A stretch of 21,685 nt of DNA from a phage. The DNA is taken from NCBI GenBank assembly GCA_037431425.1, contig GCA_037431425.1_4129.5; one strand, written 5' to 3'. The notes below the pieces were generated by a model, which worked only from the letters and a program-made list of their open reading frames with translations, had not been told where the DNA came from and did not search any database. The position numbers and the translations under genes were made by a program. Positions within the stretch are counted from its first letter, which is position 1, and each line of letters starts with the position of its first letter. Positions 6,121-6,600 of the stretch are shown here, one piece after another.

Positions 6121-6600
6121 ATGATTCATGAACACAGAGGTAATCTGTTTGAATTATTCAGTACTGTTACTACTGATCAAACTGCATTACATATTATCGC
6201 TCATGGTTGTAACGCTCAGGGTAAGATGGGTTCTGGCTTTGCAAAAGAATTAAGAAAGCGTCACCAATTGGCATATGATGTGTATCATACACGTTATACC
6301 AATCAGAATGGTTTGAAATTGGGTGAAGTTGTCTATGCAGCACCAAATAATAACTTAATTATTGCAAACTGCATTACACAAGAGTATTATGGTAATGATG
6401 GTAAGAAGTATGTAAGTTATGATGCGATTGACCTTGCATTTAACTCGATGAATGAATTCATTAAAAATGAACCACAAGAGATCCATGTACACTTCCCGAA
6501 AATTGGAGCCGATTTAGGCGGTGGTAACTGGAACGTTATCAAAGAAATCATTGACCACAGACTGGTTAATGCAGAAAAACACTTATACATTCTAAAATAA
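6121..6600 (+). CDS. macro-domain-like protein (putative ADP-ribose binding/processing)
   Basis: 159 aa; N-terminal HIIAHGCNAQGKMGSGFAKEL resembles the glycine-rich ADP-ribose-binding loop region of macro-like domains. Assignment by motif only. Confidence 0.45.
   Translation: MIHEHRGNLFELFSTVTTDQTALHIIAHGCNAQGKMGSGFAKELRKRHQLAYDVYHTRYTNQNGLKLGEVVYAAPNNNLIIANCITQEYYGNDGKKYVSYDAIDLAFNSMNEFIKNEPQEIHVHFPKIGADLGGGNWNVIKEIIDHRLVNAEKHLYILK

Follow-up and report, generated by a model that had tools for sequence, protein, structure and literature searches.

At the DNA level, the window, a stretch of 21,685 nucleotides from a phage, matches some 37 members of the 121Q/PBECO4 group (genus Asteriusvirus), which are jumbo coliphages and Salmonella phages, with 88-92% identity; judged by this identity, its source is an Asteriusvirus-like (121Q-like) jumbo phage. 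The genes run from lysozyme through an HPF-like gene, a CCA-adding enzyme, Nudix, glutaredoxin, and two small ORFs to a hairpin and a macro-domain gene. 3' of the macro-domain gene lie two or three small ORFs, a neck protein, a dNMP kinase, the tail sheath, and the tail tube. 121Q and Ecwhy_1 have the same order from lysozyme to tail tube, and so does Klebsiella phage RCIP0023, which is more distant. The features of the macro-domain gene and the Nudix gene are listed in Table 1. Orthologues of the macro protein in related phages have already been named "macro domain-containing protein", "Appr-1-p processing domain protein", or "phosphatase"; the macro-domain call is thus already in GenBank, and the concept of a counter-defence role is already published.

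Two further features of the region were recorded in passing. The HPF-like gene (1247-1579, + strand) encodes a homologue of the ribosome hibernation factor HPF/RaiA (PF02482, 41 bits); it adjoins the LysM-lysozyme gene, and the same annotation is found in 121Q. Three consecutive tail-tube-like genes follow the sheath gene (14536-17197, + strand; phrog_4542 twice, phrog_13438 once). Scans for tRNAs and Rfam families across the window found nothing.

Table 1. Features of the macro-domain gene, its 5' signals, and the upstream Nudix gene. Positions are those of the window.
Feature	Position	Strand	Basis and remarks
NUDIX gene	4890-5291		PF00293, 48 bits
Hairpin with T-tract, terminator-like	6080-6109	+	Pattern scan; 10-bp stem, 4-nt loop
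GGAG ribosome-binding site	6111-6114	+	Read off the sequence; 6 nt before ATG
Macro-domain gene, 159 aa, stand-alone single domain	6121-6600	+	ORF, ATG start, TAA stop
Loop-1 motif HIIAHGCNAQGKMGSGFAKEL, residues 24-44	6190-6252	+	Alignment; H28, G29, N31, G34, M36, and G39 invariant
Central variable module, residues 46-120 (75 codons), rare allele	6256-6480	+	N83, T86, Q87, G91, and D93 still invariant
Strand end N83-C-I-T-Q87	6367-6381	+	Q87 at the catalytic-Lys position of TARG1, DarG, and PhiKZ AdfM
Loop-2 (phosphate-binding loop) motif PKIGADLGGGNW, residues 126-137	6496-6531	+	Ungapped alignment to BT1257 and SCO6735

An earlier note on this DNA had described the macro-domain ORF as lying downstream of a terminator and near the Nudix gene. 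The first part of this description stands: the 159-aa frame has a ribosome-binding site, a conserved hairpin and T-tract lie directly 5' of it, and the motif quoted in the note is inside it. The Nudix gene is also present, but a functional link does not follow from its position, as some 830 bp, three genes, and the hairpin lie between it and the macro gene downstream, and it encodes a generic NUDIX protein. A joint macro-Nudix ADP-ribose pathway was considered and rejected; the best weak matches of the Nudix protein are RNA pyrophosphohydrolase and MutT, and the RppH, MutT, and YtkD-like matches are all far under their cut-offs.

The macro ORF is not a chance frame, because its homologues are abundant. 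We found 311 homologues at E<=1e-5 in a set of 5.8 billion proteins, 6332 cluster representatives at E<=1e-3 in an exhaustive search, and 2513 places in 2509 phage records, with one homologue per genome in the relatives.

The stem-loop itself spans positions 6080-6103 and is followed by TCTTTT; it sits between the stop codon of the upstream gene (6069-6071) and the ribosome-binding site of the macro gene. The hairpin is also present in 121Q and Ecwhy_1. In the Klebsiella jumbo phage RCIP0023 both arms are altered (GGACTCTG/[T or C]AGAGTCC becomes GGACTTCA/TGAAGTCC), and the retention of the stem despite these changes argues that the hairpin is a real RNA element. The gap between hairpin and macro start codon is only about 10 nt, which leaves no space for a promoter; transcription of the macro gene would therefore have to pass through the hairpin or start at a promoter further upstream. 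Candidate functions of the hairpin (6080-6109) are leaky termination and a part in RNA stability or processing.

The AlphaFold2 model of the macro protein (pLDDT 95, pTM 0.91) and the sequence searches, which returned PHROG 335, BT1257, SCO6735, and DarG profiles, confirm the prediction of a macro fold (three-layer alpha/beta/alpha; superfamily PF01661, clan MACRO). In a Foldseek search, the best solved structures were BT1257 (2fg1, TM 0.84), Poa1p (TM 0.73-0.77), SCO6735, DarG, and TARG1, which rank above coronavirus and MacroD-type domains. This search gave 139 matches at E<=0.001, and those inspected in the top 50 were all macro domains or designs built on them. Phage Tk.4-like proteins were top matches in a structure search of viral models. 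In a phmmer search of the PDB, the macro protein matched BT1257 (E 1e-15), SCO6735 (E 2e-10), and Poa1p (E 4e-4); a profile of 60 homologues matched BT1257 (6e-26), SCO6735 (8e-19), Taq DarG (3e-13), Poa1p (1.6e-13), and TARG1 (1e-9), and also reached Mtb DarG. The macro fold proposed in the earlier note is thus upheld: the structural comparison with DarG and MacroD gave macro domains only, with no confident hit to an unrelated family.

The HMM searches against macro families gave a divided result. PHROG 335, which bears the name "phosphatase", was matched with an E value of 7e-46, whereas Pfam Macro (PF01661) alone scored 17.8 bits (E 0.0032) and did not reach its gathering cut-off of 22 bits, so that the note's caution about the family assignment was justified. 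As many homologues of the macro protein do have a precomputed PF01661 match, we attribute the sub-threshold score to a Pfam model that is weak for this clade. A Pfam match to Peptidase_M16_C (E 0.006, under the cut-off) was discarded as noise given the fold result.

The DarG profiles cover the macro part only (PADLOC DarG, E 2e-9; NCBIfam DarG, E 3e-6). The possibility that the protein is a true DarG was rejected: the NCBIfam model NF048014 scored 26.7 against a cut-off of 250 bits and matched at profile positions 19-139 of 338 only, and the protein is a single domain that lacks the C-terminal DarT-binding domain and carries Q87 in place of the catalytic Lys. DarG (macro domain PDB 5M3E) belongs to the same class; however, it carries a further domain, which binds DarT, and its gene lies next to darT. 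Among the neighbours of the macro gene we found phage genes only and no darT.

The macro protein belongs to the TARG1/ALC1-like class, and within this class to the glutamine subclass, of which SCO6735, BT1257, and T4 Tk.4 are typical members. Residues were counted in an alignment of the macro protein with 120 homologues, T4 Tk.4, PhiKZ gp104, and reference enzymes. Essentially invariant across this alignment are H28, G29, N31, G34, M36, G39, T86, Q87, G91, P126, and G129. The motif HIIAHGCNAQGKMGSGFAKEL had been likened to the phosphate-binding loop; it is in fact loop 1, which comprises the catalytic Asn loop and the N-terminus of a helix. In the naming used for SCO6735, the phosphate-binding loop is the second motif, PKIGADLGGGNW. 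N31 maps to Asn27 of SCO6735, N22 of DarG, and N23 of PhiKZ AdfM. Q87 occupies the position of the catalytic Lys (K84 in TARG1, K80 in DarG, K78 in PhiKZ AdfM), where T4 Tk.4, BT1257, and SCO6735 (Gln85) also have Gln. Both N31 and Q87 are invariant in 120/120 homologues and align with Asn27 and Gln85 of SCO6735. In a rough NJ tree, the Lys type (gp104, DarG, TARG1) is placed apart from the Gln type (the window clade, BT1257/SCO6735, Tk.4).

SCO6735 (PDB 5E3B) and BT1257 (PDB 2FG1/2AFC) are the closest solved structures and sequences to the macro protein. All three have the conserved Asn and a Gln for the catalytic Lys, and in all three a long loop follows the Gln; that of the macro protein is comparable in length to the mobile loop of SCO6735. 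SCO6735 and BT1257 are bacterial chromosomal proteins with a basic pI of 9-10, as in DarG, whereas the pI of the phage macro protein is 6.8, close to neutrality; a still lower pI, 5.05, is found for PhiKZ AdfM, which is active. BT1257 has no known function. SCO6735, from Streptomyces coelicolor, reverses the ADP-ribosylation of thymidines in ssDNA by DarT and rescues cells from this toxin (PMC9411070), and it also strips uracil ADP-ribose from RNA (PMC13036486). Its N27S substitution nearly abolishes, and Q85A abolishes, thymidine-ADP-ribose hydrolysis; Asn27 holds Gln85 in place, and the authors propose a water-mediated mechanism (PMC9411070).

Among phage proteins, T4 Tk.4 (AdfM) is likewise a stand-alone macro domain (about 155 aa) with phrog_335 as its best PHROG match. 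BLASTP aligned the macro protein with Tk.4 at 32% identity over 122 aa (E 1e-13), and hhalign aligned the two over their full length (probability 99.4%, E 1.5e-21). The two proteins have in common HGCN, TQ (YTQ in Tk.4, ITQ here), and IGAxxGxGNW. They differ in that Tk.4 has Gly where the macro protein has D131 and a shorter loop after the Gln; the T4 gene is embedded in the tk/vs/regB neighbourhood, whereas CCA-enzyme, Nudix, and neck genes surround the macro gene. A transposon screen and a clean knockout showed that T4 needs tk.4 in order to resist DarTG2, and the gene was named adfM (preprint with genetic evidence only; bioRxiv 10.1101/2025.11.20.689424).

PhiKZ gp104 (AdfM) clears DNA of the ADP-ribose added by DarT2, and the phage needs it on hosts with DarTG2 (PMC13309987). 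This protein too is a jumbo-phage stand-alone macro domain of the same class with phrog_335 as best match, and it is more distant from the macro protein (19% identity; hhalign 98%, E 2.5e-13). PhiKZ gp104 (K78) and DarG (K80) are of the Lys type, whereas the macro protein has Q87, and both are placed across the rough NJ tree from it. PhiKZ gp104 is taken up into a phage nucleus, and no Asteriusvirus is known to form one.

We consider it moderately probable that the macro protein is an orphan antitoxin-like ADP-ribosylglycohydrolase (AdfM-type) that removes DarT2-type ADP-ribose from phage ssDNA. This role is favoured because of the full-length homology to Tk.4, the homology to gp104, phrog_335 as best match for all three proteins, the single copy per genome in the relatives, and the literature on SCO6735, tk.4, and gp104. 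The synteny of the macro gene, conserved from E. coli to Klebsiella jumbo phages, also counts for it, as do the length of the loop after Q87 and the allelic mosaicism described below, and the conserved basic residues K42 and K96 are compatible with nucleic-acid binding. The idea of a phage-encoded antidote, raised in the earlier note, appears plausible and has direct recent precedent in T4 Tk.4 and PhiKZ gp104. The gene, fold, class, conserved residues, and Tk.4 homology come from the present analysis, and the chemistry and the DarTG2 phenotype from published homologues, from which we infer the same action here.

Under the AdfM-type reading, a host DarTG2-type system would be triggered, and DarT2 would ADP-ribosylate thymidines of single-stranded phage DNA. 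The macro protein would take the ADP-ribose into the cleft between loop 1 (H28-G39) and loop 2 (P126-W137), where Q87, locked by N31, would position the distal ribose. The bond between base and ribose would be cut by a water-mediated reaction; free ADP-ribose would leave, and with the DNA template restored, replication and packaging could go on.

Several observations count against this reading. Macro domains of similar fold differ in substrate, and the identities to Tk.4 and PhiKZ AdfM are low. The macro gene is located behind a terminator-like hairpin and beside the structural module, and early expression is not evident. Gly128, Lys34, and Lys89 of SCO6735 are not kept in the macro protein, where the aligned residues are D131, S38, and G91; K34 and K89 are the DNA-positioning lysines of SCO6735. 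Other basic residues are found near these sites (K35, K42, K95, K96, and K127). We regard these three deviations as the main reason against assuming the same substrate handling as in SCO6735. The near-neutral pI also counts against the AdfM-type reading, although the active PhiKZ AdfM is more acidic still. Two distant homologues were also inspected for their neighbours. One (P0120) lies among ankyrin and PP2C genes, and the other (P0083) is on a phage-like contig of about 400 kb with a SAM synthetase and a SAM lyase; neither had a DarT gene or another ART beside it, and their neighbourhoods are therefore uninformative.

D131 (codon 6511-6513) aligns with Gly128 of SCO6735 and Gly123 of TARG1. 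Among the 120 homologues, this site holds D in 46, G in 52, A in 11, V in 6, and E in 3. In the clade of enterobacterial jumbo phages the residue is always acidic (Asp or Glu), whereas other members have Gly, Ala, or Val. In SCO6735, the substitution G128E substantially reduced activity, which the authors attribute partly to repulsion of DNA (PMC9411070). D131 and the missing DNA-positioning lysines hint at a changed substrate surface, and the variable core described below could tune specificity. The protein might thus reverse an ADP-ribosylation other than the DarT2 thymidine mark, such as uracil-linked or other RNA ADP-ribosylation, or Glu/Asp-linked mono-ADP-ribosylation of proteins by a host toxin or defence effector; its role as a hydrolase in counter-defence would then be unchanged. 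Among characterised enzymes SCO6735 is the closest; it acts on U-ADPr RNA (PMC13036486) and on PARP1-E988Q protein ADP-ribosylation (PMC9411070); however, it is inactive on 2'-OH RNA ADP-ribosylation and also on 5'-phosphate ADP-ribosylation (results section of PMC11833690). A phenotype is on record for just two phage homologues, T4 Tk.4 and PhiKZ gp104, and both are anti-DarTG2 (10.1101/2025.11.20.689424; PMC13309987), and the data examined tied no candidate ADP-ribosylating effector to this phage group. We regard such a different target as rather unlikely.

The same Gly position bears on the idea of a non-catalytic binder, which would tie up signals that contain ADP-ribose, or bind to DarT itself and block it ("interaction-inhibition"), with no hydrolysis involved. 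D131 is at the site where G128E lowers the activity of SCO6735, SCO6735, DarG, and TARG1 inhibit DarT through binding even when catalytically dead (PMC9411070), and a hypervariable core could serve as a protein-contact surface. However, the catalysis-linked residues H28, N31, Q87, and G129 are invariant in the 120 homologues, whether D, G, A, or V is found at position 131, and the active PhiKZ AdfM likewise lacks Gly there (it has Ala). Known sponges have other folds. Taken together, these points make a pure binder very unlikely.

The match to Poa1p, the yeast ADP-ribose-1''-phosphate phosphatase (PDB 6LFQ), suggests another function. Poa1p is among the best structural and profile matches (TM 0.73-0.77, E 1.6e-13) and has a similar fold and HxCN loop; Poa1p-like activity is the basis of the labels "phosphatase", as in the name of PHROG 335, and "Appr-1-p processing". 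Accordingly, the macro protein could be a housekeeping enzyme for free ADP-ribose derivatives, either a Poa1p-like phosphatase or an O-acetyl-ADP-ribose deacetylase, that clears by-products of NAD-dependent RNA repair or of a phage Sir2. Against this, Poa1p has a Ser where Gln is invariant in the family of the macro protein, and it has a large insertion before loop 2. Of the mutated Poa1p residues H23, S30, and F152, whose role is read from the titles of PDB entries, only the His is kept; the corresponding residues here are H28, K35, and G133. BT1257, SCO6735, and Tk.4 match the macro protein much more closely than Poa1p does.

The genomic context can be read either way for such a housekeeping role. 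Genes for a CCA-adding tRNA nucleotidyltransferase and the Nudix protein lie upstream of the macro gene, and Iyer et al. proposed that Macro, NADAR, and Nudix proteins process ADPr derivatives in jumbo phages (PMC7824862). The Nudix protein, however, has no ADP-ribose-specific signature, and three genes and the hairpin separate it from the macro gene. To our knowledge, T4-type RNA repair makes no 2'-phosphate junctions, which also counts against the housekeeping function. The closest relative, Ecwhy_1, encodes a Sir2-family protein (223211-223960 in that genome, outside the window; PF02146, 71 bits), but this gene is about 38 kb distant. On this evidence we hold a housekeeping function to be unlikely. 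Separately, the Ecwhy_1 protein QAY00367.1, cited as NADAR (PMC7824862), had no match in Pfam or in a phmmer search of the PDB; a NADAR partner would mirror the pair AdfN and AdfM of T4.

If the macro protein acts as T4 Tk.4/AdfM does, macro-domain anti-DarT factors would reach the 350-kb Asteriusvirus and Rak2-like jumbo phages, and resistance to DarTG2-type defence would be predicted for these phages. Their hosts are E. coli, Salmonella, and Klebsiella, and several such phages are considered for therapy. The family is a very large one, with homologues in about 2,500 phage records and 6,332 cluster representatives, and proof of the activity would therefore change the common annotation "phosphatase".

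The macro gene was compared with those of the two reference relatives. The macro ORF is 98.7% identical to that of Ecwhy_1 (annotated as "Appr-1-p processing domain protein") and 74.8% identical to that of 121Q. Both flanking genes show the reverse pattern, with 98-99% identity to 121Q and 94% and 80% to Ecwhy_1. In sliding windows, the DNA identity to Ecwhy_1 is about 100% only across positions 6138-6615, whereas the identity to 121Q falls to 47-73% across 6258-6470 and is >=93% on either side. Comparison of the protein with the 121Q-type allele gives 96-97% identity for residues 1-45 and 121-159 but only 51% for the core (residues 46-120). Of 50,697 phage records, just two, Ecwhy_1 and Turkey3, have the core allele at 100% identity; the best match after these was <=61%.

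From these identity patterns, we conclude that the core of the protein (residues 46-120) has been exchanged by recombination, in a patch that coincides with the macro ORF. The conserved ends, which bear both ligand loops, may have served as recombination arms for this exchange. Mosaicism of the core fits a gene involved in host conflict without proving such a role. The core together with the acidic residue-131 clade might form a specificity cassette, with alleles matched to host ADP-ribosylating effectors or DarT2 variants, or evading a host sensor or inhibitor, and with the Asp marking a change in catalysis or substrate relative to SCO6735 and Tk.4 and their DNA-thymidine activity; we consider this quite doubtful. 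The Asp131 variant and the swapped core nonetheless provide a natural allele set for the substrate or partner specificity of Gln-type macro domains.

Mosaicism was also observed elsewhere in the window. The ORF at 2029-2412 (+ strand) has no counterpart in the 121Q locus and is 94% identical in Ecwhy_1, and the ORF at 2713-3126 (+ strand) is 50% identical to 121Q and 88% to Ecwhy_1. Between the neck gene and the next gene lies a homing-endonuclease-like ORF of 664 aa (8398-10392, + strand; phrog_3339/phrog_559 HNH, Pfam DUF7487). This ORF is missing at that site in 121Q and Ecwhy_1 and present in RCIP0023 (55% aa identity); its distribution suggests a mobile insertion, and the distance to the mosaic macro gene on its 5' side is about 1.8 kb.
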